A stretch of 63,905 nucleotides of DNA, the filler included. It is 8 parts of 8 records of this genome, joined end to end, with 100 filler letters (N's around TTAATTAATTAA, not from the genome) between each part and the next. Parts side by side here need not be neighbours in the genome. Positions count along the whole stretch, not along the records: positions 1 to 6,500 come from SRR31156797_39258; 7 more parts are not named here. One strand, given 5' to 3'. The notes below the pieces were generated by a model. That model made no database searches, was not told the origin of the DNA, and saw nothing but the letters and a program-made list of their open reading frames with translations. This document shows, one piece after another, positions 1 through 58,876 of the stretch. The number at the start of each line of letters is the position of its first letter. Within the stretch, counting starts at the first letter, position 1. The position numbers and the translations under genes are program-made.

Positions 1-447
1 CTAACCGTTACCTCCGAACCGACACATTGAGAGTATAGAGAGTAACACCCCGGAAGTACAATATTTATTCCACAAGTGATGGTTCTCATGTCCTTGCCGT
101 AATTATCGATTGTCTCTATTATATTTTCGCTGACCTCGGCCAACAACCTGAAAACAAACTGTTTTTCAAGAAGTCAGCATACACTCAAGCAACTACGAAT
201 TGCGCCTCAGGAGATACAACTAACCTCCTGATATCAAAATCTTTGTTATATGTCCGAACTCGCTCAGGTGGATCAGTGGTGGACTACTTTGATAAAAGGC
301 ACCGAACCGAGACGTAAAGGGAGCGCAATTACAGGAATAGTCACAAGTTCTCGTGTTTCGAGAATTTCTTGAGGTTGGGCTTGTCAAGGCTAACGATATA
401 GCCCAAGAAGCGGTAAGTCACCGCATTCTCTGGAATGCCTTTAGTTT

Positions 448-822
448 TCAATTTCTAATCACATGATAAAGTGCAGGATCATACTTCAAGCCCTCTACCA
501 TTTTTATCTTTTCCAAGCGTAAATATTCCTTCATTTTCTGGGTTGCACTTGCAAAGGCTTCACCACTTTCCCACTCAGCAACATTAACCAATTGGTAAGT
601 TGCGTCTAGCTGAATCGATTGGTGTAGCTTCGTTGAAATATAGCCAGGTTCATTTTGTAAGAAATCCCGCGCTTCCTCCCAAAATTTAACTGACTCTTCA
701 AGTTTTCCAGCTGGGACTGTGAACGGGTTTATCAAGACAACAGATTCTGCCGTAGCAATAGATGCTGGCGCAATAAGGAAAGTATAAATTAACAATTTAA
801 TGATATTCATTTTCATAGTCAT
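448..822 (-). CDS. antibiotic biosynthesis monooxygenase (ABM)-family protein with N-terminal signal peptide
   Basis: LINPFTVP...F...ARDFLQNEPGYISTKLHQS...LVNVAEWES is the ABM-like dimeric alpha/beta barrel pattern; hydrophobic N-terminus. Confidence 0.8.
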   Translation of the reverse strand: MTMKMNIIKLLIYTFLIAPASIATAESVVLINPFTVPAGKLEESVKFWEEARDFLQNEPGYISTKLHQSIQLDATYQLVNVAEWESGEAFASATQKMKEYLRLEKIKMVEGLKYDPALYHVIRN

Positions 823-844
823 CTTCCAATAGGGAAAGGATCGC

Positions 845-1366
845 TCACAAGGACTCTATAACGTTACTTTTTCTGAAATTTTTCCAGGGTTTATAAACAG
901 AGAAAAAGACAGCTGTTATCAGCAATAGTGTATTAATGATTGCTGCCCAGATGCCAATGGTCACCCCTTGCATGTAATAGCCATCCTGTAACGATCCAAG
1001 CCTTTTTAGATCAGTGATAGCCAACATCTTTGTTACCATCGGCCCTAGATAAAAAGTACCTGAAATAATAATTGCCAGTGTCGCTAACCACTTATAGACG
1101 AGCCAGCCATGCTTGAAAAAACCCCACTTTGTGAACAATGAGTAAATAAGTCCAGTAAGCAGCGTTACTATTGCCGCAGGCGTCAGAATGTACATGTCGA
1201 TAAAGTGATAGATGAGGTTGTACATATAGATTTCGTCGCCTGAAGCTATATTCTTGCCAATAATCGGCATCACCAACAATACGATGACACAAGACAACCA
1301 TAAGCCAGCAACCGTGACATGGACCGCTTTGAGTAATTTTTGACTCTGAATTGAGAGTTGCTTCAT
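845..1366 (-). CDS. DUF2269-like integral membrane protein
   Basis: LKAVH..AGLW, LLTGL..SLFTKWGFFKHGWLVYKW and C-terminal SVYKPW motifs; 4 hydrophobic segments. Confidence 0.7.
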   Translation of the reverse strand: MKQLSIQSQKLLKAVHVTVAGLWLSCVIVLLVMPIIGKNIASGDEIYMYNLIYHFIDMYILTPAAIVTLLTGLIYSLFTKWGFFKHGWLVYKWLATLAIIISGTFYLGPMVTKMLAITDLKRLGSLQDGYYMQGVTIGIWAAIINTLLLITAVFFSVYKPWKNFRKSNVIESL

Positions 1367-1390
1367 CGCCAGGACTCCTTTCCTGTTTAA

Positions 1391-1834
1391 TTACTTGAGC
1401 TTACCAGTCATTTTGAGCCCATCTCGAATGTTCATGCTCATTAGTGTCATATTGATCGCACCTGCCAGTAGTTCAAGACCTTGCACTACATAAAATTTTG
1501 CATCAAATACTCCTGCTGATGCCAGGTGATTGAGGTATATCGCTGCCGGTATAAGTATCAAAACTCCATTCGTCCCAATGAAAGGCATTCGTTTCATTTT
1601 CTGGTCAACCAGTAAGCCCTTTCTCTTCCTTGATAGGAAAGCACCACTACCTCCTGTTGCAATTATCGCTGGAACAAGAATAAATAACCCAGGGCATACA
1701 ATGAAATTTTTAACCTTGACGATCCATTCTTCTGTTCCAAAAAGTTCCACAAGTAGCGTAGATGAAAAGAAAGTGATTATGCACGTTAATGCCAACATTC
1801 CAGCTATTCTGTGAGTATTACGTTTCATTATCAT
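1391..1834 (-). CDS. conserved membrane protein (HR..G...FF.STL..ELFG family)
   Basis: 4 hydrophobic segments; overlaps MarR stop, same operon. Confidence 0.65.
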   Translation of the reverse strand: MIMKRNTHRIAGMLALTCIITFFSSTLLVELFGTEEWIVKVKNFIVCPGLFILVPAIIATGGSGAFLSRKRKGLLVDQKMKRMPFIGTNGVLILIPAAIYLNHLASAGVFDAKFYVVQGLELLAGAINMTLMSMNIRDGLKMTGKLK

Positions 1835-2303
1835 TCTGTACTCCTTCTAAAGAAGAGCTTTGTACACGAAGGCGACAATCTATCATCATTTCTAGGGTTT
1901 GCTTTAACTCAGCGACCTTCATCTCATTAGACATTTGGTTAACCCATCGCTCCTGCCTCTTGGTGATTTCCAACATCGATTCTTTTCCAAGATCAGTAAG
2001 GAAATATAATTTTGCTCGCCGATGGGCAGGGTTTGGTGAAGTATCAATAAAACCGTCCTGTTTAAGTCGATTTGCTATTCTTTGAACGTTTTGTCGTGAC
2101 AATCCCATTTTACGACCAATGTCAGCTACGGTAATTGGTCCGTCCACCAAACTGCCAAGGATCTGCCATCTTGCACTCGTTAAACCGAGATCACTAATGA
2201 GTTTATCACCAGCCTCAATCAGCGCTCCATTTAGACGAAATGTCTCTAGGATTATTTCAGTGAAGGTGTTTCCAGATTTTGTATGAGTCATTATTATCTC
2301 CAT
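1818..2303 (-). CDS. MarR-family transcriptional regulator
   Basis: GLTSARWQILG...TVADIGRKMGLSRQNVQRIANRL...PNPAHRRAKL..LT..G winged-helix motif. Confidence 0.92.
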   Translation of the reverse strand: MEIIMTHTKSGNTFTEIILETFRLNGALIEAGDKLISDLGLTSARWQILGSLVDGPITVADIGRKMGLSRQNVQRIANRLKQDGFIDTSPNPAHRRAKLYFLTDLGKESMLEITKRQERWVNQMSNEMKVAELKQTLEMMIDCRLRVQSSSLEGVQNDNET

Positions 2304-2305
2304 AT

Positions 2306-2358
2306 TGACAACACGTTGTCATGTTTTGTAAACATAGCAACTTGACACCATATTGTCA
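2306..2358. promoter_or_regulatory. two TGACA-N6-TGTCA palindromes, probable MarR operators
   Basis: TGACAACACGTTGTCA (2306-2321) and TGACACCATATTGTCA (2343-2358) immediately upstream of the marR start. Confidence 0.75.
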
Positions 2359-2679
2359 ATGCGCAAACAGCGATTAATTTTATAGATGTGGTATGGAGAA
2401 TTATTTAGATGAATACATGTGATTTGAGCTGCTAATCTCACATTAAAAAAGGCTACTAACTCTGAAGGTTATTCCTGTACACCCTCGACCAAGAATTCAG
2501 GGATTCCGGACTTCGAATAGCTGCGCATTTAACCATTCTACGCTACATTTGATAATCGAATGACGAAATCAACCTCTGTCGCTGGTACGTCGGTTCGGAG
2601 GCTTGCGATAAGATATGGACGACGTGATTACGATGAGGTGTGGCGGCAGAAAAACAATAGAGTGAAATTCGCTTCACTA

Positions 2680-3255
2680 TCAGGACCCACTCGACAGCAA
2701 ATCATACGGCCTTCCACCATTCTGTATGGATCGCATGTGACCATTAACATCGCGATCACGGAGTACTGATAGTACGTACCCTCCGATCACTGACACGAAA
2801 AGAATCCACTCGACTCCAGAAGGCAATTTAATCTGCAAATAGAAAGGATACAACACATCGAAATGTTGGTAAATTAGCCGTCCAACGTCGACATTCATAA
2901 GGCGTAAAAACCACGGCAACATGCACAGCGAAAATTTTACGATGAGAATGTGACCAATAAACCCGAGCATCGTCAATTCCTTCAGCTTCGAGGCGGCACT
3001 ACCAGCGAAAACGAGTTTGCCCAGCAGATAGTTGTTCATGCCATAAATCACACTGGCAAAGATTAAGCCGAGAAGCATTATTCGTATTGACTCCGGCCAA
3101 CTAAAAGTTGCCGCGAGAAGACTCACACAAATGTGAGCCACGAACATCGTCGTTGTTCCAATTCCACCAAGAACAGCGCCTTTTGTCAGCGTACATAACC
3201 GCCGCGAAGTAGTTAACTGCCGTTCCGTTATCGGTAATCGACAGAGTCGCTCCAC
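2680..3255 (-). CDS. hypothetical membrane protein (start uncertain)
   Basis: 191-aa ORF with several hydrophobic segments; no family recognised. Confidence 0.4.
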   Translation of the reverse strand: MERLCRLPITERQLTTSRRLCTLTKGAVLGGIGTTTMFVAHICVSLLAATFSWPESIRIMLLGLIFASVIYGMNNYLLGKLVFAGSAASKLKELTMLGFIGHILIVKFSLCMLPWFLRLMNVDVGRLIYQHFDVLYPFYLQIKLPSGVEWILFVSVIGGYVLSVLRDRDVNGHMRSIQNGGRPYDLLSSGS

Positions 3256-3392
3256 GAGACTGAAATACTCAAGCTCAGAATGAGCAGTAATATACCTCGA
3301 AAACTCGATGCCCCAGACCGCTCCGCTTCTTCACGTTGAGTAGCTTGTGGGTCTCCTCCGAGCATAAATGCGTCGTTACTCATGATGACCTC

Positions 3393-4349
3393 CTATCTTA
3401 GATAATGCAGTGTAATTTCAGGTTGATAATGACCTATTTCAAGAACGACCGCCTGCAAAGCTTCATTGAAGTTTTTGCCGCCAGTCTCTTGATGCGCTCG
3501 GAAACTATTTTGGACAAAATTCCAACGTAACCCGTGCGAACCATTCCAGTTCTCACCAGCTCGTTTCGTGGCGCTCTTTAACGATGCAGCGTAATTACAT
3601 CTGGTGAACTCAAATTTACCGTTCTCGATAGCAATTTTTTCTACTCGTTTATAGAGATCCTCGGACACTTCTACGGTACGAACCCGGTCTCCTTTCGTAT
3701 TCGTATATCGTATGGCCCAGCCGTACCTTTCTTGATCTGTACCTTCATCAAGAAGTGTATACCCGAGTAAGTTCCGATCTAGTTTAAGTTCTGAAACTTC
3801 GGATATTCGCGCGCCACTATATAATTGCAGCTCAGCAGCAAGTTTATATTCAGGGATCTTTAGTTCCGCGATCACAGCTTTTGGATTTTTATAGCCACGA
3901 GATTTACTACTACCGTCCAAATCTCCTTTCGCCTTCCCTCTTAGCCGATCCACGGTTTCTGAGTAGTACAGCAGATATTTGCGTACATTATTGAGTGCAA
4001 CTTCCATCTTACTGAATGCGGCGGCATATCCTTTGAACGTACGTAACTTCACGCCAACATTAATTTTCCGCTGTAGAAATCCCTCAACATGCCAGCGCTT
4101 TATTTTCGCCGGATCACGTACACCGTACTCCATCCGCGCATAAGTAAAGAATCTCTCCCAGGCTTTTTTATATTCAGCTTCAGTGCGAAGCGAATATACC
4201 GGCATATGTTTCGCGATATTTGCCGGTGTTGTCGATATTCCTTGTGATTCCAACTGCTCTCGAACTTTCGCCTTCATTTCATGCCTTGGAATAGCCGCGA
4301 CATTCCGACCATTTTTATCTTTTGCCGTTTTCGCACGTACGGTTCGCAT
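3393..4349 (-). CDS. tyrosine recombinase/integrase-family protein (probable original start at 4385, interrupted by TAG at 4353-4355)
   Basis: Catalytic set intact: SGARISE (R), NTKG (K), HGLR, IGH, C-terminal LHY; N-terminal SAM-like core-binding region (YS..T...Y...W..FF). Confidence 0.88.
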   Translation of the reverse strand: MRTVRAKTAKDKNGRNVAAIPRHEMKAKVREQLESQGISTTPANIAKHMPVYSLRTEAEYKKAWERFFTYARMEYGVRDPAKIKRWHVEGFLQRKINVGVKLRTFKGYAAAFSKMEVALNNVRKYLLYYSETVDRLRGKAKGDLDGSSKSRGYKNPKAVIAELKIPEYKLAAELQLYSGARISEVSELKLDRNLLGYTLLDEGTDQERYGWAIRYTNTKGDRVRTVEVSEDLYKRVEKIAIENGKFEFTRCNYAASLKSATKRAGENWNGSHGLRWNFVQNSFRAHQETGGKNFNEALQAVVLEIGHYQPEITLHYLR

Positions 4350-4419
4350 AAGCTACTTCGCTAAGTACTTCGGACTGCCTTTCATTTGCCACCTCATAAT
4401 TCATCGTCAATCGTTCAAC

Positions 4420-5100
4420 TTCGCTCTGTAAAGATAGCGAAAAGAACAACGCTTGAAGCAACGCAGAAAGTGAATGAACAGTGAGCAGCGTCAGCTGAGC
4501 AATAAATATCACAGTCCTAGATATTTATATACCGCGTGACTTGATGATGAAGAATCGACTTGAGCTTGGCAAAACACTGAAAGGAAGAAGAGATATTTCT
4601 TTTCATTGATTTACAGCGAAAGCGTGCTCCAGCGAAGTAAGAGCGCATGACCCGTTTCTGTCGTCGAAGTCCGTTCCCGTTTTGCTGGCTTGTATCTGCA
4701 AAACGGGGAAGGACCGTCCCCGTTCGGCTCCCTGAGAACAGCAAGGAACAGCTGTTCAAAATAGCCACCAAGCACAGCGGTGAAACAACTGTGCCGATAC
4801 GACGCACTTTTTTACCGCTCGTGTACCAACATCCTCGTCTTTCATCTACCGGTACACATAGAGCGTAGTAGAGACGCGACGTATCTCTACACCGCGAGAC
4901 GAGTTCCGTGAACAGACTCTCGCACCGCACGCCTTAGCCTTGTCTAAGCCGTGCAACAGTGTCGTGAAACACACCAATTCACGATACGACCAAGTCCAAC
5001 ACCAAGTGTTGCGACGACCAGCTTCGAAATTTCGAAGCAAGGCGCTTTCTTGCGTCAGTGTTCAACAGCAAGCAATTACAGCCGACCGTGAGGCCGGTGA
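4420..5100 (+). ncRNA. candidate large structured RNA or structured ssDNA element (array of adjacent hairpins)
   Basis: About 12 consecutive stem-loops; G-U pairs occur on the plus strand in stems 4578-4605, 4669-4714 and 4959-4987; no convincing ORF. Confidence 0.45.
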
Positions 5101-5125
5101 TTTTATAAAGACGGAGGATAAAGCA

Positions 5126-5716
5126 ATGTTTGAAGAACAAACAACAATCGGCGGTACACAGGCCGCACTGAATTCGCCTGCCCCGCCGACGCCGCAGGTG
5201 CGCAAGCTTTTAAAAAACTCACTTGAATACTTCGTGACGATGAGTGACGAGGACAAGCTGGCAATCTTTCAGGATAGTGAATTCGACATTGTTGAGTTCA
5301 GCGAGACCGTGAATGAACACAGGACCGCTGCACTCGCGGATATCGATTCAGCCATAGAAACTATCAAGAAAGCTCGTCCGAAGACCGCATCGAAAAAATC
5401 AGAGTTACTACGACACCGGTATCTCGTAGAAGTGAAGAAGCTCACTGAGGCAGATATCAAACCAAGAAAGATTGTCGGTTATTTGAGAGATAAGCATAGA
5501 TTTGTCGTCAAAGAACTGGCAGTGAAGAATCTAATTGCGGAGCTGAAAACCGAGGAGATGCTTGAAAGCAGTGAGCTATGCGAGGAAATCGAGCGTCATG
5601 AAGACTGGACGCATCAACAGCTGGCTCATCATCTCAACGGCAAATTCAAAACTCGCACCACGGCGGCAGTCGTGAAACGTGTAAGAGCTGAACTTGAAAA
5701 GAAAGCCAATCTATAA
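5126..5716 (+). CDS. hypothetical DNA-binding protein with two tandem HTH-like repeats
   Basis: RBS GGAGG 5113-5117 before ATG 5126; repeats IKPRKIVGYLRDKHRFVVKELAVKNL and WTHQQLAHHLNGKFKTRTTAAVVKRV. Confidence 0.65.
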   Translation: MFEEQTTIGGTQAALNSPAPPTPQVRKLLKNSLEYFVTMSDEDKLAIFQDSEFDIVEFSETVNEHRTAALADIDSAIETIKKARPKTASKKSELLRHRYLVEVKKLTEADIKPRKIVGYLRDKHRFVVKELAVKNLIAELKTEEMLESSELCEEIERHEDWTHQQLAHHLNGKFKTRTTAAVVKRVRAELEKKANL

Positions 5717-5726
5717 GGAGAACGAC

Positions 5727-6179
5727 ATGGAACTTCGAGCAGTGATTATTGCAACCATTCTATTAGTCGCGTCGAGCGTCACAGCAGGCGAGTTACAATT
5801 CATCCAAAACAGCAGCGGCGTTACGTCTCACGTTATGTACAACGGCCAACTGTACCCTGTAGCGTCAGACGGGACGGTCGTCCTGGACGGTAGCAAGATA
5901 CCTGTCACGGTGTTAATGGCCGCAGCTCAACCGCAGCAGCCACACGTGCAGTCAACCGTGCAGCCATCCATACAGCCACCGCAGCAGTGGCAGAATCCTG
6001 ACCTGCAGCAGTCACAAACACAAACCTCGAATCGGCCACAGCCGTCTCCTGAATATAACAATACGAAATCGGCAACTAAGCGTGAACTAAAGCGTGAGAC
6101 GAGAAAAATCTTAGGAAATGGTACCGGATCAAGCATCGGTGCCGGAGTTGTCGAAGATGTCTTAGGCTCTTTTTTCTAA
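5727..6179 (+). CDS. hypothetical secreted protein with Q/P-rich linker
   Basis: RBS AGGAG before ATG 5727; signal peptide MELRAVIIATILLVASSVTA. Confidence 0.65.
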   Translation: MELRAVIIATILLVASSVTAGELQFIQNSSGVTSHVMYNGQLYPVASDGTVVLDGSKIPVTVLMAAAQPQQPHVQSTVQPSIQPPQQWQNPDLQQSQTQTSNRPQPSPEYNNTKSATKRELKRETRKILGNGTGSSIGAGVVEDVLGSFF

Positions 6180-6229
6180 TACACAGCGACTCATTTTTGC
6201 TGTGAGACATTAAGCCACGGAGTTTAACG

Positions 6230-6478
6230 ATGGACATTTCAGTATGGTACGTGATCGAGCGAATATCAATGTTGTCAGTTATCGCGTTCCTTGCAGTATT
6301 TGCAATCTATCAATGGAAGATAGCGAGCGTGAGACCGTCTCTGTTAGCGAAGTTTCGAGACGAAGCTGAAGCTATGGCACGTGAAAAGATGGCCGCTGAA
6401 GTAGAGGAGCATCAAGCTGTCGTTGATGATTTCGCACGTCGAATCAAGGATGTGTATTCCAGTGAAACTGGACATTGA
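6230..6478 (+). CDS. small single-TM hypothetical protein, 3' end probably disrupted by IS insertion
   Basis: RBS GGAG; TM segment; last codons lie in the IS21-like end. Confidence 0.5.
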   Translation: MDISVWYVIERISMLSVIAFLAVFAIYQWKIASVRPSLLAKFRDEAEAMAREKMAAEVEEHQAVVDDFARRIKDVYSSETGH

Positions 6479-6500
6479 TTCCAGAGGAATCCGGACACCG
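6451..6500 (+). mobile_element. terminus of an IS21-family insertion sequence (contig break)
   Basis: Begins TGTGTATTCC; tandem sub-terminal repeats ATTCCAGTGAAACTGGACA / ATTCCAGAGGAATCCGGACA of the kind seen at IS21-family ends; contig ends here. Confidence 0.65.
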
Positions 6501-6600
6501 NNNNNNNNNNNNNNNNNNNNNNNNNNNNNNNNNNNNNNNNNNNNTTAATTAATTAANNNNNNNNNNNNNNNNNNNNNNNNNNNNNNNNNNNNNNNNNNNN
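6501..6600. other. artificial contig linker (N-TTAATTAATTAA-N); same linker at 13207, 22816, 37627, 46603, 52711, 58777
   Basis: Identical 100-nt N spacer with six-frame stop motif. Confidence 0.99.
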
Positions 6601-7234
6601 CTGCGCCTGGTTGCACGGTCCTTTGATCGATCCAAAACATTGGGAAAACTGCGTTGCGGCTTTGTATGAAGAACTTATCCAAGCCCTTCCTGATGGAATA
6701 AATGAATTCAGAGCCTATTTGAACACTAAGAACGAAACCGGTATAGCCATGTATCGAAAACTGGGGTTCGAAAAAAAAGAACATCCCTCTTTCGTTTACC
6801 AATTATCACGTATTTGCAGGGTCCCACTTCCTTCGCACATTTATACGCCTCTCAATAAAGAACATGAAGCTACTTTTAAACGTTTATTCGAAGAACTTTT
6901 TCCCAACAGCTACTACACTGTTGAACGTTTGCTGGAAATGAAAGGCAATAGCCATGAAATATTCATTGCCATGAACAAACACACTTTTGCGGGATTCGTG
7001 GTCATCAGCAAGGATGAACATGAAATCCAATTTCTGGGTGTCGAAGCGGCATTCAGGCGAAAAGGTTACGGAAAAATACTATTGAGCACCGGAATAAATT
7101 ACTTATTCGACACAGTTAAAACCGACCGCGTGGACCTGAACGTGAACGGTGATCTCGAAAATGCCCGCAAGCTTTATGAAAGTGTCGGATTTAGATTACA
7201 ATATAGCGGGATCGGATTGACAAAAAAATATTAA
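6601..7234 (+). CDS. GNAT-family acetyltransferase (tandem GNAT, 5' truncated)
   Basis: N..GIAMYRKLGF and LGV..AFRRKGYGKILL...N..ARKLYESVGF motifs. Confidence 0.85.
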
Positions 7235-7524: not shown

Positions 7525-8397
7525 ATGATCATTGATATCGCATTGCCCCTATCTCTCGTTTTTATCATGTTCAGTCTGGGACTGGGCCTAACGCTTGACG
7601 ATTTCAAGAATGTATTTCGTCAACCAAAAGCGTTTACACTTGGATTATTGAACCAGATGGTGCTTCTGCCCTTGGTCGCTTTCGGAATTATTTCGCTGTT
7701 GGGACTCAAGGGTCCCATGGCGGTTGGATTGATGATCTTATCAGCTTGCCCGGGCGGCGTCACCTCGAACATCGTAACAAAACTAGCCAAAGGAGATACG
7801 GCATTATCCATTTCTTATACAGCTGTTGTGAGTGTTGTGTCGGTTTTGACCCTGCCTTTGATCGCAGCCTTTTCATTGAATCATTTCATGGGCGCTGCCG
7901 CTCCTGAGATGAATATTCTAACGCTTGGATTGCAGATGTTCCTCATTACTGTTATCCCCGTGGGGATCGGTTTATGGATCCATGCGAAAGCAAAGGACTT
8001 TACAAAGAAATTTGAGCCAATTGCCTCTAAAATATCATCCGTACTTTTTGCCGTGATCGTGGTCGCCGCTTTAGCCAGTGAATGGGATGCCTTTGTCGAG
8101 AACGTAAAGGTACTCGGTCCGGCCATCGTCATATTGATCATTGTCATGCTTTTGATCGGCTATTATTCTTCAAAATTATTCAAGATGAAGGAACCACAGG
8201 CTGTATCCGTCGCTATCGCCACGGGAATTCAGAATGCGACTCTGGGTATTGCTATTGGAAATATTATTTTGCCGGCTGCTGAAGGCCTTTCAGTCTTTAG
8301 CTTACCTTCAGGTGTTTATGGGATCCTGATGTATCTGGTTGTTCTGCCGATCGTGTTTTTATATGTGAGGTTGATACGGAAGGGTGTGAAAAAGTAA
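7525..8397 (+). CDS. bile acid:sodium symporter family protein
   Basis: IMFSLGLGLT..DF, LSACPGGVTSN..T.LAKGD.ALS, GIQN motifs. Confidence 0.92.
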   Translation: MIIDIALPLSLVFIMFSLGLGLTLDDFKNVFRQPKAFTLGLLNQMVLLPLVAFGIISLLGLKGPMAVGLMILSACPGGVTSNIVTKLAKGDTALSISYTAVVSVVSVLTLPLIAAFSLNHFMGAAAPEMNILTLGLQMFLITVIPVGIGLWIHAKAKDFTKKFEPIASKISSVLFAVIVVAALASEWDAFVENVKVLGPAIVILIIVMLLIGYYSSKLFKMKEPQAVSVAIATGIQNATLGIAIGNIILPAAEGLSVFSLPSGVYGILMYLVVLPIVFLYVRLIRKGVKK

Positions 8398-8398
8398 A

Positions 8399-9349
8399 TT
8401 AATAATTCCAGTAATCACTTACTAATGTATCCGCAAATATGGAAAAAGCGGGATCATCTGTGAGGGTGGTAAAATAATCCAGCTGACGTATATGAATTTT
8501 ATGATAAACCGGATTCGTATGTTTGTGTCGGAGACAATAGTATGAAATACCCTCTGGATTTCGGAAAGAATACATATTATTATTGATCGTTGTCAAATAT
8601 ACCGATAATACATTTCTAACGTTCTCGCTATCATTGACTAAACGGTAATAATCATATAAGCCTATGAGCGCATACATAAATCCATTGAAAGTATGATCCG
8701 GAGGAGTACCCGGATATTCCTCGATCCATGCAAATTTAGCTGAATCAATACAGACAATTTCTTTGCTCAGGGAGGAGTAAGGATTTAATGTCTCAAACAT
8801 TTTATCGGCCAGAGGCGTAGATGATGAGTCTTCTAAATAATATGACAAAAATGAGAACAGCGATAAAGCCAAACCTTGGGCCATACCGGAATACCATGGG
8901 TTAGAATGATAAATATCAAAATGGACATAATTCATTCTGTATTCAAGCAACCCGTCTTCATCCATTAATCCGATCAAGGCATCCCGATGTTTCAGGGCGG
9001 TATTGAGAAATTGTATCGAATCGGGCATATTGATATAGTGATCAAAGAAATTCAATCCTCTCGTAGCAATAGCTACAGGATTATAGTAATCCAGGTACAA
9101 ATAACGAGAAATGATAACTCCTTCTTCATCTGCTGTAAAATTGTAGGGGTCAACACCAATGTAATTGCCAAGGGGATATCGGAAATAGAGTTCCATTTCA
9201 TCAATAATGTTAATATTGAACTGTTTGTCTTGTAATTCACCGACTTGCGGCAAAGTATCACAACCTGAGACCAACAGGAGCATAACAGTAAATACTAAAA
9301 GAATCGATTTATTTTTAATTTGTTTAAACATTATTGCTAGTAATTCCAA
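8399..9349 (-). CDS. lipoprotein with D-glucuronyl C5-epimerase C-terminal domain (paralogue 3; likely start 9331)
   Basis: YNPV.IA..GL, PWYSGMAQGLALS, WIEEYP..PPDHTFNGFMYALIGLYDY, YHKIHIRQL; lipobox VSGC. Confidence 0.8.
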   Translation of the reverse strand: MELLAIMFKQIKNKSILLVFTVMLLLVSGCDTLPQVGELQDKQFNINIIDEMELYFRYPLGNYIGVDPYNFTADEEGVIISRYLYLDYYNPVAIATRGLNFFDHYINMPDSIQFLNTALKHRDALIGLMDEDGLLEYRMNYVHFDIYHSNPWYSGMAQGLALSLFSFLSYYLEDSSSTPLADKMFETLNPYSSLSKEIVCIDSAKFAWIEEYPGTPPDHTFNGFMYALIGLYDYYRLVNDSENVRNVLSVYLTTINNNMYSFRNPEGISYYCLRHKHTNPVYHKIHIRQLDYFTTLTDDPAFSIFADTLVSDYWNY

Positions 9350-12929: not shown

Positions 12930-13306
12930 CCACCCTGTGCAATGTGTAAATGTATGTAGAATAATAAACTTATATTATGAGAATAGCAAACGACTTTTAC
13001 AGATTATGGGTTATGGGTGTTGGATGATTAATTCGGGACAGATATATCTGTCCCCTTCACCGCCTTGAATAACGAACATTAGAACAATCGAAGTAATTGT
13101 CAATTGTCCTTTTTCAATTGTTAATTGTTTCCACCCCATACTCCGAACTCTCATGCTCCCATACTGTTTTTTCGATAGAAAAAACAAACATCCGCATAGC
13201 GGATGTNNNNNNNNNNNNNNNNNNNNNNNNNNNNNNNNNNNNNNNNNNNNTTAATTAATTAANNNNNNNNNNNNNNNNNNNNNNNNNNNNNNNNNNNNNN
13301 NNNNNN

Positions 13307-22768: not shown

Positions 22769-22983
22769 TTTAAGACAGCGCTAAACCCAGAACAAGCGTG
22801 TTTTGAATAAGAAAANNNNNNNNNNNNNNNNNNNNNNNNNNNNNNNNNNNNNNNNNNNNTTAATTAATTAANNNNNNNNNNNNNNNNNNNNNNNNNNNNN
22901 NNNNNNNNNNNNNNNCAGGAGCGGATTAAAGAGGTATTCAGCACACCCTCTCACTTAGTGATTCGCCTAAAGGTGCTACCTTT

Positions 22984-37626: not shown

Positions 37627-37726
37627 NNNNNNNNNNNNNNNNNNNNNNNNNNNNNNNNNNNNNNNNNNNNTTAATTAATTAANNNNNNNNNNNNNNNNNN
37701 NNNNNNNNNNNNNNNNNNNNNNNNNN

Positions 37727-46518: not shown

Positions 46519-46747
46519 GGTATGCCTTTTATTGCTGAGGGTTAGGACGGATAGGGTCTTCCTTTTTTTTCAAGCAAGGTATAACAAAGAATAAAAAGAT
46601 TANNNNNNNNNNNNNNNNNNNNNNNNNNNNNNNNNNNNNNNNNNNNTTAATTAATTAANNNNNNNNNNNNNNNNNNNNNNNNNNNNNNNNNNNNNNNNNN
46701 NNTTTTTTTATCTTCTCGGAATTGAAATAAACAGGAGCGGAAACAAA

Positions 46748-49322: not shown

Positions 49323-50926
49323 TAATGTTTGAAGTGCCTCATCCCTACAAACACCATCCCGACACCCAACTCATCCGCTTTCGCAATGACCTTTTTGTCG
49401 CGAATGGATCCACCGGGTTGAACAATGGTCTTGATCCCAACTTCGGCAGCAACTTCAACATTGTCGGGAAAGGGGAAAAATGCATCGGATATCAGCACAG
49501 TATCAGCCATTTTTGCTTTGATATAGTCTTCTACATCGCCTTCGCCATTCCACTCGTTTTTTAGATTCTCACGAGCACGTTTTACGCTTAATTCGGTGGA
49601 ATTCAGACGATTGGGCTGCCCACAACCCATGCCAAGCAATTGACAATATCCGTTTTCTAGCTTTCTGACAAGGCAAATGGCATTTGATTTCAATTGTCTG
49701 ACTGTTTTCAAGCCAAAATCAAGCAATTCGTCATCTATCTTCGCTTTGGTTTCGGTCACGTTATCCATTTTGGCTTTGACCTTAAGATCCGAATCCTGAT
49801 ATAAAAGTGCATTGTGTAGGACCTTCATATCCTTTTCAGGGAAAAGGAAGTGAGGATCGAATTCCACAATGCGTAAATTTTTGTGCAATTGCAAGTATTG
49901 TAGCGCTTCTGGTGTAAATCCCGGGGCTACAACGATCTCAACAAATTTGCGTTTACCTTTATCCTCGGCATCCAATGCGAAGAATTCGACGGTTTCACGT
50001 TCTACAACGGTATTGAACGCGATCACTGAACCGAAGGCTGACACAGGATCACCCTCCCAGGCAAGTTCCATGGCTGTGCGTTGGTCATCACCGGTAGCAA
50101 GTCCGCAGGGATTGGCGTGCTTGATCACAGCAACACCATGCTGACGCATATCACGGATTGACTCGATGGCACCATACATATCAAACATATTATTATAAGA
50201 AAGTTCTTTACCATGAAGGACTTTCATATCGTAATAGGAGCTGTCTGCCCCTTTTTGACGTAAAAAATAACCGTTCTGGTGAGAGTTCTCACCATATCGC
50301 AACTTTTTGGCCTGATCATAGGCCAAACGCACCGTTAATTCACCGGCTTCGGCATCCATTGTGGTTGCGATCAATGCATCGTAATCGGCCGTGTGGTTGA
50401 ATGCCTTGCGCATCAGATCGAAACGAGTCTCTTCTTTTAATGCACCGTCATTTTTTGCAAGTTCTTCAAGAAGTGCAGGATAATCATAAGGATCAACGAC
50501 AGTAGCAACATATTTATAGTTTTTGGCGGATGCTCTTACCATCGTGGGACCGCCAATATCAATATTTTCGATCAAAGTAGGCAGATCTGCACCCAGAGCC
50601 TTTTCTTTGGCAAAAGGATATAAATTACACACAACCATATCGATCGGCTCTATTTCAAGCTCTGAAGCTTCTTTTGCATCTTTTTTACGATCATATAACA
50701 ATGCTGATTCGATCTGGAAAGAAATGGTCTTCATCCTGCCGCCGAAAGCTTCAGGATTTCCTGTAACTTTAGAAATATCAGTAACTTCTATTCCTGCTTC
50801 CTTTAATACTTTTTTTGTACCACCTGTAGAAATGATCTCGCAACCCTGACGTTCAAGTGCGGCCGCAAAATCTACAATTCCAGCTTTATCCGAAACTGAG
50901 ATCAATGCTCTTTTGATCTTGATCAT
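49322..50926 (-). CDS. purH: bifunctional AICAR transformylase/IMP cyclohydrolase
   Basis: RALISVSDK, STGGT, IDIGGPTMVRASAKN, LRYGENSHQ, KHANPCG, SDAFFPF, QPGGS, RHFKH. Confidence 0.97.
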   Translation of the reverse strand: MIKIKRALISVSDKAGIVDFAAALERQGCEIISTGGTKKVLKEAGIEVTDISKVTGNPEAFGGRMKTISFQIESALLYDRKKDAKEASELEIEPIDMVVCNLYPFAKEKALGADLPTLIENIDIGGPTMVRASAKNYKYVATVVDPYDYPALLEELAKNDGALKEETRFDLMRKAFNHTADYDALIATTMDAEAGELTVRLAYDQAKKLRYGENSHQNGYFLRQKGADSSYYDMKVLHGKELSYNNMFDMYGAIESIRDMRQHGVAVIKHANPCGLATGDDQRTAMELAWEGDPVSAFGSVIAFNTVVERETVEFFALDAEDKGKRKFVEIVVAPGFTPEALQYLQLHKNLRIVEFDPHFLFPEKDMKVLHNALLYQDSDLKVKAKMDNVTETKAKIDDELLDFGLKTVRQLKSNAICLVRKLENGYCQLLGMGCGQPNRLNSTELSVKRARENLKNEWNGEGDVEDYIKAKMADTVLISDAFFPFPDNVEVAAEVGIKTIVQPGGSIRDKKVIAKADELGVGMVFVGMRHFKH

Positions 50927-52710: not shown

Positions 52711-52950
52711 NNNNNNNNNNNNNNNNNNNNNNNNNNNNNNNNNNNNNNNNNNNNTTAATTAATTAANNNNNNNNNNNNNNNNNNNNNNNNNNNNNNNNNN
52801 NNNNNNNNNNTGCAAACCTGTCAACGACACAGCGATACCTTGGCACGATCAGTGATATTGAAGCGATCCGATGGATTGAGAACATCTACGGGTAGAATAG
52901 GAAAGGGGTGATGCCGGTTTCGGTTTCACCTCTTTTTGATGGATACAATA

Positions 52951-58776: not shown

Positions 58777-58876
58777 NNNNNNNNNNNNNNNNNNNNNNNN
58801 NNNNNNNNNNNNNNNNNNNNTTAATTAATTAANNNNNNNNNNNNNNNNNNNNNNNNNNNNNNNNNNNNNNNNNNNN

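Follow-up and report, generated by a model that had tools for sequence, protein, structure and literature searches.

A hairpin-dense spacer in a tyrosine recombinase module: a candidate structured leader or non-coding RNA with an operator or core site

The spacer between a tyrosine recombinase gene and a divergent partner gene in the window analysed here (the whole stretch of DNA, 63,905 nt) is dense in hairpins, and the results support the conclusion that it forms a structured, non-coding partner of the genes on both sides. The explanation that we favour, tentatively, is that the spacer holds a structured leader of the recombinase gene, or a non-coding RNA, together with an operator or recombinase core site. 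The features of the region are as follows:

3393 to 4349, minus strand: tyrosine recombinase P0001, 318 aa, open reading frame as called
4350 to 4395, minus strand: ancestral recombinase N-terminus and Shine-Dalgarno sequence, from comparison with relatives P0004–P0007
4350 to 5125: spacer, 776 nt
4420 to 4441, no strand assigned: hairpin nearest the recombinase, with the motif at 4452 to 4462 ahead of it on the recombinase-sense strand
4452 to 4462, no strand assigned: CTTGAAGCAAC, the window's form of a block of TCTTGA(G/A) type that lies close to the start of the recombinase
4502 to 4528, no strand assigned: perfect 9-bp hairpin, absent from the stems listed in the sequence-only reading
4578 to 5011, no strand assigned: GC-enriched array of 11 unrelated hairpins, as local folds (4578–4605, 4622–4646, 4669–4714, 4746–4757, 4772–4794, 4816–4865, 4868–4890, 4894–4923, 4927–4954, 4959–4987, 4997–5011)
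4971 to 5020, no strand assigned: pair of 22-nt direct repeats (73% identity, spaced 28 nt), next to the palindrome
5021 to 5038, no strand assigned: perfect 18-bp palindrome (9+9), 87 nt before the partner start
5082 to 5097, no strand assigned: small hairpin with a 6-bp stem and a 4-nt loop
5113 to 5117, plus strand: Shine-Dalgarno sequence GGAGG of the partner gene
5126 to 5716, plus strand: partner protein P0002 (196 aa), which diverges from the rest of its family of small helical proteins with a C-terminal HTH-like motif

The hairpin density of the spacer, noted in the sequence-only reading, is confirmed. Each of the 13 stems listed there folds alone as a hairpin, with plus-strand energies of −1.4 to −24.7 kcal/mol (the weakest being 4746–4757, −1.4; 4997–5011, −4.1; and 4420–4441, −5.8 kcal/mol), the linkers TA, ACC, ACC, and AACA separate the helices of 4816–4987 as claimed, and G-T pairs are present at 4583/4600, 4675/4708, and 4961/4985. 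The description of the region as almost fully tiled by stems holds for 4816–5038 but fails for 4442–4577. Array hairpins are mostly 23–30 nt long, and array GC content is 0.52–0.54 vs. approximately 0.42–0.47 in the flanks. The stems share no common sequence, and no REP, CRISPR, or tandem multi-copy family is present in 4300–5200. Nor is there a cluster of intrinsic terminators: 4200–5300 contains one terminator-like site vs. 1.3 expected.

The folding energy of the spacer is below that of every shuffled control on both strands, as expected for the structured element that had been proposed. The minimum free energy (MFE) is −266.2 vs. −205.4 ± 5.9 for 20 shuffles on the plus strand (z −10.3) and −264 vs. 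−238 ± 8.4 for shuffles on the minus strand (z −3.1). For the core, 4578–5040, z is −7.8 on the plus strand and −4.0 on the minus strand with RNA parameters (60 shuffles), vs. +0.8 to −2.3 for five coding control blocks in the same test; with DNA parameters, z is −5.6 and −6.4, and none of 100 shuffles folds as well. Compared with real sequence from the window, the spacer is less extreme: its GC-regressed 300-nt windows rank 7–50 of 637, and its seven hairpins with at least 7 Watson-Crick pairs per 776 nt are the window maximum, a count that two other regions equal (mean 2.4, sd 1.5). This high but not unique rank is what might be expected if the hairpins had no function and were neutral quasi-palindromes gathered in a long spacer. 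We consider that explanation very improbable, in view of the behaviour of related loci: distant relatives show the same excess and matched controls do not, close relatives conserve the array as well as or better than the flanking genes, and one subfamily shows covariation.

Among 19 deduplicated related spacers of 300–560 nt, 18 have z of −3 or lower on at least one strand (means −6.1 and −5.0), vs. three of 19 size-matched pieces of recombinase genes (means −0.66 and −0.92). In all 12 tandem-arranged loci scanned, structure measured in 300-nt windows also peaks upstream of the recombinase, with a weak signal in three (L002, L076, and L086; best z no lower than −1.1). The arrangement of recombinase, spacer, and small protein recurs in distant relatives with equally structured spacers.

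The covariation called for by the sequence-only reading was found, in one subfamily (six rows, five distinct), which is distant from the window, so that the evidence does not extend to the window's own hairpins. In that subfamily, 96% of alignment cells are paired and six pairs have changed on both sides, vs. 3.0 ± 1.1 in shuffles (1 of 500 reaching six) and 0–2 in slid controls. In close relatives of the window, from two metagenome runs, identity over 4581–5015 is 93.6–95.5% vs. 83–93% over the flanking genes. Only three of the 12 substitutions listed in 4866–5068 fall on bases paired in the plus-strand MFE fold, in which 60% of bases are paired (P 0.017), and the two single-base insertions listed, after 4931 and after 5100, are both at unpaired positions; the listed variants of the close relatives avoid stem positions.

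Conservation of another kind is seen at the ends of the leaders of relatives, where conserved sequence blocks flank variable hairpins across subfamilies. A TCTTG-type block is present in 17 of 37 related spacers (regular-expression search of the first 260 nt by the recombinase, near-duplicates included). In hand-picked relatives, a CAAGA-type motif is separated from the ribosome-binding site by a hairpin of unlike sequence (L103, L121, L111, L114, L102, and L093), a hairpin with a short stem occupies the same place in two (L013 and L031), and the motif stands without a hairpin in three (L087, L004, and L095).

No known RNA family and no coding sequence accounts for the spacer. As predicted, there is no Rfam match: with Rfam 15 at gathering threshold, the whole window and 16 related loci yield none, and at E ≤ 1 the interval 3300–6300 yields a single unrelated match (E 0.9) inside a neighbouring gene. 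The window contains no tRNA, tmRNA, or rRNA. No open reading frame in the spacer has a relative in 131 related loci (tblastn), as the proposal of a non-coding element requires. Three frames were considered as coding sequence and rejected: 4517–4930 (minus) and 4647–4868 (plus), which have no Pfam match and no tblastn match in the 131 loci, and the extension of the partner frame over 4940–5125, which has no Pfam match as part of 4940–5716 and likewise no tblastn match in those loci. The insertions after 4931 and 5100 fall in open frames (4846–5040, minus, and 4940–5125), and these frames are therefore not kept.

On sequence evidence, the recombinase, P0001, is a divergent subfamily member of the tyrosine recombinases rather than a non-member. 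A family alignment of 26 sequences shows no variation at any of the six catalytic residues (R181, K219, H272, R275, H307, and Y316), the family profile matches the integron integrase IntI4 as best solved relative in the PDB (5e-10), and P0001 matches a PHROG integrase family (2e-8). P0001 matches no Pfam family at E ≤ 0.01 and does not reach the gathering score of Phage_integrase (PF00589), which more distant relatives carry. An NCBIfam scan at E ≤ 1 gives no match to the integron-integrase model; the sole listing is a weak XerA_Arch match (0.0063; 16 bits vs. a cut-off of 220). The closest relatives, P0004–P0011, are 64–91% identical, and no relative was found in viral contigs. Relatives P0004–P0007 start MKGSPKYLAKQLM; upstream of the called start, the window has, on the minus strand, an SD-like GAGGTGG (4395–4389), an ATG (4385–4383), the identical 10 residues, and then an in-frame TAG (4355–4353) in place of their Q. 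Given this early stop, the window's copy may not be fully functional.

The partner protein belongs with those of the related loci. P0002 matches a profile of 30 partners from related loci (hhalign probability 93%, E 3e-7) and is also joined to that family by BLAST single linkage. Its AlphaFold2 model is all helical (pLDDT 87.7). The earlier label of tandem-HTH protein goes further than the evidence: P0002 has no Pfam family and its model has no PDB fold at E ≤ 0.001. The best fold matches (E 1.8–3.7) include transposase DNA-binding domains and a small terminase, a search of the PDB with the sequence profile gives nothing meaningful, and a protein atlas gives weak HTH/transposase-like leads, with scores no higher than 0.82. 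A partner-family HMM was used to locate the partner gene in the 131 related loci. In 72 of them the gene lies upstream of the recombinase and is divergent from it; in 17 it closely follows the recombinase on the same strand; in 14 it is at another position in the locus; and 28 loci gave no partner gene, 19 of these having less than 1.2 kb of upstream sequence.

The module is carried by small circular Rep_3 and rolling-circle plasmids and by chromosomes, the latter with one to two copies per genome. The published plasmid pTRACA66, of rolling-circle type (Rep_OBD), has the same arrangement, with a 671-nt spacer (z −13.6 and −10.6) in which a sigma-70 scan found no sites; the passages on its isolation describe recovery as a transposon-plasmid cointegrate in kanamycin-resistant transformants (PMC3263338). 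The DNA of 3300–5800 has no similarity among plasmid and phage records. No element ends were found: 2301–2800 and 6381–6720 share no repeat, direct or inverted, of 9 nt or more, and repeats within 2400–6500 are at chance level; the contig stops at 6500, with the right end beyond view.

Promoters in related spacers point through the hairpins towards the recombinase. In a scan of 29 related spacers, six (L028, L031, L087, L089, L095, and L102) have TTGACA-16-TATAAT, with 12 of 12 matches, in the recombinase sense, 252–328 nt before the recombinase start, and two more (L013 and L103) have recombinase-sense promoters with 11 of 12 matches; the hairpins sit between promoter and start codon. The partner gene in relatives has its own promoter, 1–35 nt before the start of the longest open reading frame and downstream of the array, so that the array is absent from the partner mRNA. 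The window's spacer has no promoter with at least 10 of 12 matches on either strand; the sole match (9 of 12) is on the minus strand at 4572–4544, and a transcript from it would cover approximately 160–190 nt to the recombinase and leave the array, 4578–5011, outside.

These promoters bear on the strand of the structure. The sequence-only reading had inferred a plus-strand fold from G-T pairs. That inference is not supported: the window holds only four G-T vs. one A-C, the summed hairpin energies are nearly equal (−121.4 plus vs. −114.9 minus), both strands score alike with DNA parameters, and the promoters of relatives point the opposite way. Viewed in the partner sense, a hairpin scan of 32 spacers gives 38 G-T vs. 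51 A-C, and subfamily alignments give 25 G-T vs. 39 A-C. The strand tests are weak and mixed, the window being opposite to its relatives. Consensus folding energy is lower in the recombinase sense in four of five subfamily alignments, and single-sequence MFE folds of relatives pair the 5' end of the leader with the ribosome-binding-site region.

A plus-strand RNA, be it a non-coding RNA ending at the hairpin and T-run of 5082–5106 or a leader of 5126–5716, is quite improbable. Its z is the larger one, but the gap reflects base composition, because the plus strand is G-poor and its shuffles fold badly; the native energies are equal, and the gap is gone with DNA parameters. The window's G-T excess agrees with this explanation, and TGATTTTAT follows the 5082–5097 hairpin on the plus strand just before the partner's ribosome-binding site, but the stem of that hairpin has an A-C mismatch on the plus strand that is a G-T pair on the minus strand, the terminator scan does not call it, and the position of the partner promoter in relatives leaves the array out of the partner mRNA.

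The second conserved component of the spacer is the palindrome. The 5021–5038 palindrome is unique in the window (0.02 matches expected by chance). Long palindromes lie 32–148 nt before the partner's longest-ORF start in 21 of 31 related spacers; the family-specific palindrome is found approximately 30–125 nt before the partner gene, and 5021–5038 occupies that place. A GCTTT...AAAGC palindrome is present in 10 of 32 spacers and nowhere in 241,353 nt outside spacers. In relatives, the arms have 8–17 perfect pairs and the centres 2–11 nt; in one alignment (A3) the arms are invariant and the centre variable, and in the window's close relatives centre base 5028 varies. The relatives fit the pattern of loxP/dif-type cores (arms of approximately 9–13 bp, variable centre of 6–8 bp); the window's site is a perfect 9+9. 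We regard 5021–5038 as a candidate operator or recombinase core site. The 22-nt repeats (4971–4992 and 4999–5020), the sole repeat found across stems, are possible accessory protein sites.

The same observations would fit an explanation in which the entire spacer consists of clustered sites for protein binding to double-stranded DNA. It would serve for multimer resolution or as an attachment site, the palindrome being the core, the direct and further inverted repeats being accessory sites for recombinase and partner, and the hairpin potential being a by-product of many dyad-symmetric sites. Resolution sites often adjoin their own recombinase genes, as with P1 loxP-cre and Tn4430 IRS-tnpI, and the location of the spacer would be analogous. 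Conserved arms with a variable centre, as in loxP, FRT, and dif-type cores, specificity of the palindrome for spacers, direct repeats abutting it, and three tandem palindromes of one type in the pTRACA66 spacer all agree with such sites. The array itself does not: its stems have no common sequence, so that one or two proteins could not recognise every stem, compensatory changes preserve the pairing, which dyad sites would not need through to a 3–5-nt loop, and variants fall in loops and linkers rather than stems. We consider this explanation unlikely for the spacer as a whole.

Folding as single-stranded DNA is a stronger alternative, and one that we hold to be possible though less than likely. 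The hairpins would act as an oriT, a single-strand origin, or folded recombination substrates; in the oriT version, the recombinase-like protein would nick and the small partner would be an accessory protein. Integron attC sites and the CTX phage attP are known folded-strand recombination substrates, and RSF1010-type mobilisation regions combine an enzyme gene, a site, and a divergent gene for a small DNA-binding protein, a layout that the module resembles by analogy. Single-stranded DNA fits the folding data equally well, because folding with DNA parameters is just as significant, with both strands folding equally well; pairs in the stems are nearly all Watson-Crick, and the wobble pairs do not consistently favour one strand. 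The carrier plasmids (3.8–6.1 kb) have no known relaxase, and six of seven plasmid records encoding a relative are typed non-mobilizable. Since pTRACA66 replicates by rolling circle, it needs a single-strand origin somewhere; however, the module is also on Rep_3 theta plasmids (L102 and L123) and chromosomes, and such an origin therefore cannot be its general role. The best solved relative of the recombinase profile, IntI4, is an integron integrase, but P0001 lacks a match to the integron-integrase model, most hairpins (23–30 nt) are too short for two recombinase monomers, and no attC R''/R' box pair (RYYYAAC/GTTRRRY, 45–150 nt apart, either strand) was found. The six catalytic residues fit a true recombinase, with nicking still compatible, and near-consensus promoters read through the array in eight relatives. 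Structures of this kind, according to the relevant part of Weinberg et al. 2017 (PMC5737381), are indistinguishable by sequence analysis from single-stranded DNA structures.

The recombinase-sense promoters also bear on the possibility, which we consider improbable, that the array is a free-standing, trans-acting non-coding RNA, a scaffold or guide needed by the recombinase. It would correspond, for a tyrosine recombinase, to the bridge RNA of IS110 or to the retron and omega RNAs encoded beside their enzymes. A 12/12 promoter in six relatives is followed by 250–330 nt of structured RNA upstream of, and co-oriented with, the recombinase; conserved blocks stand at both leader ends around variable hairpins; and the array is GC-enriched vs. 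its flanks and at least as conserved as the neighbouring genes. There is, however, no terminator between the array and the recombinase start. Nor is there an excess of complementarity between leader and palindrome: in 15 of 16 loci, the longest exact match of the leader to the palindrome with 6 nt on each side is equalled or exceeded in 5% or more of the shuffles (exact matches to the putative site only). To our knowledge, tyrosine recombinases read their sites by protein-DNA contacts in every studied case. An RNA-dependent tyrosine recombinase was not found in the passages returned by a full-text literature search (PMC13604230 included).

We return to the favoured, tentative explanation, in which the spacer would supply, in cis, both the control sequences and the site for a conserved recombination module of two genes, tyrosine recombinase plus small helical HTH-like partner, on small plasmids and integrated islands. 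It would have three layers. The first would be the long run of independently folding hairpins adjoining the recombinase gene; in relatives, a near-consensus sigma-70 promoter would produce a 250–330-nt structured leader, or a leader-embedded non-coding RNA, towards the recombinase, and pairing of the leader 5' end around the ribosome-binding site could hold back or gate recombinase translation. The second would be the sequence-conserved palindrome between the two divergent promoters, which would be an operator if the partner binds it, a core site if the recombinase does, and possibly the target of both proteins. The third would be the promoter and ribosome-binding site of the partner gene. In the window, the hairpin run would extend over 4386–5011, approximately twice the length in relatives, and 5021–5038 would be the palindrome. 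Transcription in the source organism and its strand are inferred, as are the regulatory role and the identity of the protein that binds to the palindrome.

Structured, translation-limiting leaders are a known feature of transposase and recombinase mRNAs, as in the IS200 tnpA 5' UTR and IS10 RNA-IN. The module resembles these in having a mobile-element recombinase gene behind a folded leader that, in the MFE folds of relatives, can mask the ribosome-binding site by pairing. It differs in length (250–330 nt in relatives, up to approximately 640 nt in the window), in having approximately 8–12 separate hairpins and, in relatives, a perfect-consensus promoter, and in having a dedicated divergent partner gene and a palindrome. 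The P1 loxP, Tn4430 IRS, and ColE1 cer sites are protein-binding DNA of approximately 34–280 bp without covarying hairpins. The module is like loxP-cre, IRS-tnpI, and cer in having a dyad-symmetric putative core with variable centre beside a recombinase gene, direct repeats next to it, and small plasmid carriers, but interposes several hundred nt of unrelated stems between core-like palindrome and gene. Integron attC sites comprise R''/R' boxes flanking an imperfect hairpin of 57–141 nt and are separated by cassettes. Like an integron, the module has an Xer/IntI-like tyrosine recombinase divergent from a run of hairpins with common structure and no common sequence; unlike an integron, it has no such boxes, 2–4-nt linkers with no cassette ORFs between hairpins, mostly shorter hairpins, no match to the integron-integrase model, and as neighbour a conserved partner rather than a cassette. 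With oriT/relaxase modules the likeness is in gene layout only.

The names int-alpA and xerDC are said to denote integrase-associated candidate RNAs in the 2017 survey by Weinberg and colleagues. The term int-alpA does not occur in Weinberg et al. 2017 (PMC5737381). The portions of that paper concerned describe conserved intergenic structures of unassigned function by integrase and plasmid genes, possibly single-stranded DNA, which the spacer resembles; unlike those motifs, neither the window nor the 16 related loci match an Rfam family at threshold. The IS110 bridge RNA, as presented in excerpts of Durrant et al. 2024 (PMC11208160), is a structured RNA encoded immediately before a recombinase gene and in the same orientation. 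So far as those excerpts allow comparison, the spacer of relatives is alike in its upstream co-oriented position and sigma-70-type promoter, and differs in that the enzyme is a tyrosine recombinase rather than DEDD/RuvC-like, in that no loop-to-site complementarity (exact matches) and no Rfam match were found, and in that the module is present in one to two copies per genome and not as a multiplying insertion sequence.

The results define a compact module of recombinase, partner, and structured spacer that has moved among plasmids of both rolling-circle and theta type and chromosomes of several phyla. Its components are all unnamed: Pfam has no family for the partner, its integrase model misses the close recombinases, and Rfam has no family that the spacer matches. 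The structured spacer is the conserved non-coding heart of the module, so far undescribed, the likeliest reading being a structured leader RNA together with a palindrome to which protein binds. The spacer makes up 18% of the DNA of a 3.8-kb plasmid and must therefore pay for itself. It is doubtful that an entire, as yet unnamed subfamily of tyrosine recombinases requires the array, as a dedicated non-coding RNA acting in trans or in cis, to choose its sites or bring them into synapsis; if it did, this would be the first RNA-dependent tyrosine recombinase system, and the small helical partner would be a regulator or an RNA- and DNA-binding adaptor. An RNA that works with the enzyme, or folded single-stranded DNA, would widen the range of cofactors or substrates of tyrosine recombinases. 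The leader, if that is what the array is, would make the gating of this recombinase unusually elaborate.

The window joins separate contigs end to end, and two genes with a linker between them are therefore not neighbours. In each of the seven linkers (6501-6600, 13207-13306, 22816-22915, 37627-37726, 46603-46702, 52711-52810 and 58777-58876), a 12-nt spacer with stops in all frames is flanked by 44 N on both sides. The hairpin-dense spacer (4350-5125; 776 nt) lies on the first piece, 1-6500, between two genes. The features of this piece are as follows (plus strand, partner sense; minus strand, recombinase sense):

2680-3255: small ORF in a putative ~4-kb element, outside the module
3228-3383: small ORF in the putative element, outside the module
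3393-4349, minus strand: recombinase gene P0001, ORF of 318 aa
4420-4441: short hairpin following the CAAGA-type block
4452-4462: CAAGA-type block near the recombinase start
4502-4528: perfect hairpin, additional to the stems of the sequence-only reading
5021-5038: perfect palindrome, unique in the window, 87 nt before P0002, with GCTT at its start and AAGC at its end
5126-5716, plus strand: partner gene P0002, ORF of 196 aa with a strong GGAGG ribosome-binding site
5727-6179: small ORF in the putative element, outside the module
6230-6478: small ORF in the putative element, outside the module

All 13 stems named in the sequence-only reading fold as hairpins when folded singly, and the short linkers between stems and the three G-T pairs are as that reading described. 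The core of the spacer (4578-5040) is GC-enriched (0.52-0.54 vs. about 0.42-0.47 alongside). The spacer folds better than dinucleotide shuffles on both strands, with z of -10.3 (plus) and -3.1 (minus) for the whole spacer, -7.8 and -4.0 for the core with RNA parameters (vs. +0.8 to -2.3 for five control blocks of coding sequence from this contig), and -5.6 and -6.4 for the core with DNA parameters. The larger plus-strand z is no evidence for the plus-strand RNA that had been proposed: it stems from the poorly folding shuffles of a G-poor strand, and native folding energies are equal between strands (-266.2 plus vs. -264 minus). Against real sequence of the same window, GC-regressed 300-nt windows of the spacer region rank 7-50 of 637, and the plain hairpin count, 7, is the window maximum, shared with two other places, 8201-9200 and 49701-50500 (7 hairpins of at least 7 Watson-Crick pairs per 776 nt). 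We conclude that the structure of the spacer is high, not unique, for this window. On another contig piece, 13300-22200 (GC 0.53-0.60) has strongly folding 300-nt windows and no rRNA or Rfam match.

The spacer matched no known RNA family (no Rfam match at E <= 1; none in the whole window at gathering threshold). Searches of the spacer found no tRNA, tmRNA or attC box pairs, and no repeat family, which bears out the earlier statement that the array is not a REP or CRISPR repeat; terminator-like and promoter-like sites show no excess in the spacer region. A protein-coding reading was rejected, the ORFs of the spacer having neither a Pfam family nor relatives in 131 related loci.

P0001 has no Pfam match, and comparison of sequences nonetheless identifies it as a tyrosine recombinase: R181, K219, H272, R275, H307 and Y316 are conserved without exception across 26 aligned sequences, the family profile matches IntI4 in the PDB at 5e-10, PHROGs assigns P0001 to integrase, and 36 of 1,247 database candidates are relatives. 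Relatives begin 12 codons further upstream, with MKGSPKYLAKQLM. In the window, minus-strand codon 4353-4355, codon 11 from the ancestral start, is an in-frame TAG in place of the Q of four close relatives, and the called ORF therefore starts at an internal ATG. A Shine-Dalgarno sequence stands before the ancestral ATG, and the internal ATG has no obvious ribosome-binding site. The window's recombinase copy may be impaired or re-initiating, or the TAG base may be an assembly variant. The partner P0002 has no Pfam family; its AlphaFold2 model is all helical and confident, and its comparison with solved structures found no fold. A profile of 30 partners from related loci, built without P0002, matches it with 93% probability (E 3e-7).

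Species-representative genomes, mostly MAGs labelled Desulfobacterota-type, Geobacter-type, Campylobacterales and others, contain 51 loci with related recombinase genes (51/65 pattern matches confirmed); among metagenome contigs 457/488 matches were confirmed, the best 80 of which were taken further, and viral contigs yielded none. All recombinases from these loci are <=38% identical to P0001. A partner-family HMM, run over every ORF of the 131 loci (a set with near-duplicates), placed the partner gene upstream of the recombinase and divergent from it in 72 loci, immediately behind it on its own strand in 17 and elsewhere in the locus in 14, and gave no partner in 28, 19 of which have <1.2 kb of upstream sequence. 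Two contig pairs, L123/L128 (6.1 kb) and L102/L104 (4.4-4.5 kb), are mutual circular permutations and encode Rep_3 initiators. The published dental-plaque plasmid pTRACA66 (3,796 bp), with a rolling-circle-type Rep, has the same layout as the window's module; passages of its report (PMC3263338) mention just a possible integrase, along with ORFs that lack homology. Five genomes searched whole contain 1, 1, 1, 2 and 1 copies. Given plasmid carriers and one or two copies per genome, we conclude that the module moves as a unit with plasmids and islands and does not multiply as an insertion sequence would. On pGLOV01, a 77-kb plasmid of Trichlorobacter lovleyi, a 'hypothetical protein' (2938-3873) is a family member with 33% identity over 94% of P0001, and adjoins another tyrosine recombinase, this one annotated as such, and a Tn3-family transposase.

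Around the window's own module, a second variant of 566-2451 in the probable source run, about 80-90% identical, departs at 2451, and relatives in two other runs have contig breaks at 2687 and 6452/6465. These breaks hint at an insertion, some 4 kb in size, that reaches the contig end; no flanking repeats were found for it. The contig end (6465-6500) carries the motif CCAGAG...CCGGACACCG, of which relatives have a second copy about 47 nt upstream, a short repeat that may explain the assembly break.

The DNA between the two genes at related loci is likewise strongly structured. Eighteen of 19 deduplicated spacers (300-560 nt; 15 shuffles each) reach z <= -3 on at least one strand, with mean z of -6.1 (partner sense) and -5.0 (recombinase sense); for equal-sized recombinase-gene pieces from these loci the means are -0.66 and -0.92, with 3/19 reaching -3. 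As in the window, these spacers are runs of unrelated hairpins, back to back. At 12 loci with a tandem partner behind the recombinase, the top structured windows are on the upstream side of that gene in 12/12, the signal being weak in three (L002, L076, L086). The pTRACA66 spacer (671 nt; 1714-2384, 18% of the plasmid) has z of -13.6 and -10.6; in it are three palindromes in tandem, all of one type (GTTCGTA, 6-8 nt, TACGAAC), together with several perfect ones whose arms measure 11-17 bp. We conclude that structure in the spacer is characteristic of the module.

In one subfamily distant from the window (six spacers, five distinct, 83-87% identical), six pairs are changed on both sides yet still pair, vs. 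3.0 +/- 1.1 in shuffles, 1/500 of which reaches six, and 0-2 in slid controls; visual inspection shows another two stems with entirely changed sequence and intact pairing. These changes provide modest evidence, from distant relatives, that stems may be under selection. Fragmentary relatives of the window in two metagenome runs are 93.6-95.5% identical over 4581-5015 vs. 83-93% over flanking genes. The 12 substitutions listed for 4866-5068 (the list gives the best-supported differences, with 406 more outside it) fall on paired bases in 3/12 cases in the plus-strand MFE (60% of bases paired; P 0.017), in 5/12 in the minus-strand fold (68% paired; P 0.05), and in 0/12 in stems of well-defined hairpins. 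That the hairpins have no function, a reading that their shared maximum count in the window would favour, is scarcely credible beside these patterns.

Eight of 29 spacers scanned, from five subfamilies, have, 252-330 nt ahead of the recombinase start codon, a near-perfect sigma-70 promoter directed at that gene (12/12 matches in L028, L031, L087, L089, L095 and L102; 11/12 in L013 and L103), and the hairpin run falls between this promoter and the start codon. The partner gene has its own promoter 1-35 nt before its longest-ORF start, and a long palindrome lies between the two promoters; the longest hairpin is 32-148 nt before that start in 21/31 related spacers. A GCTTT...AAAGC palindrome (at least 8 perfect pairs) occurs in 10/32 spacers (16.8 kb) vs. 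0 in 241 kb outside, with arms invariant and centre variable within a subfamily. We take the 5021-5038 palindrome, the centre of which (5028) varies in the window's relatives, to be the equivalent site. Such invariant arms would suit a spacer that is a cluster of double-stranded sites, a reading that, beside stems re-written with pairing kept, is unlikely. Near the recombinase start, several subfamilies have a CAAGA-type block and then a short hairpin of varying sequence.

Tentatively, we favour transcription of the hairpin run in recombinase sense, as a structured leader of the recombinase gene or an ncRNA, together with a palindrome that would serve as operator or core site. The promoters in relatives argue for recombinase-sense RNA, as do a consensus energy lower that way in 4/5 subfamily alignments and a weak excess of would-be G-U changes in relatives (39 vs. 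25 and 51 vs. 38). We infer from single-sequence folds that the 5' end of the leader may pair with the region around the ribosome-binding site. Against recombinase-sense RNA, the window's spacer has no good promoter on either strand, and its lone match (9/12; 4572-4544) would, if used, give a transcript towards the recombinase that lacks the main array. Wobble pairs in the window itself tend towards plus (4 vs. 1); the plus-strand RNA of the sequence-only reading is very unlikely. DNA parameters fit as well as RNA parameters, and a search for RNA runs containing the stretch listed none, two further points against RNA; hairpins acting in single-stranded DNA, as an oriT, single-strand origin or folded recombination substrate, are plausible if doubtful, the promoter-bearing relatives speaking for transcription. 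A recombinase-dependent ncRNA acting in trans could also draw on those promoters; guide-like complementarity between leader and palindrome was negative in a simple test, full-text searches and passages of papers gave no description of the recombinase module or of an RNA-dependent tyrosine recombinase, and this reading is similarly unlikely to that of double-stranded sites. The array of the window has about twice the length of those in promoter-bearing relatives, and 4578-5011 may thus hold something that other spacers lack.

The results show that the hairpin array is real and that the finding is broader than sequence alone could reveal: the spacer forms the non-coding core, so far undescribed, of a recombinase module that is widespread and has no name.
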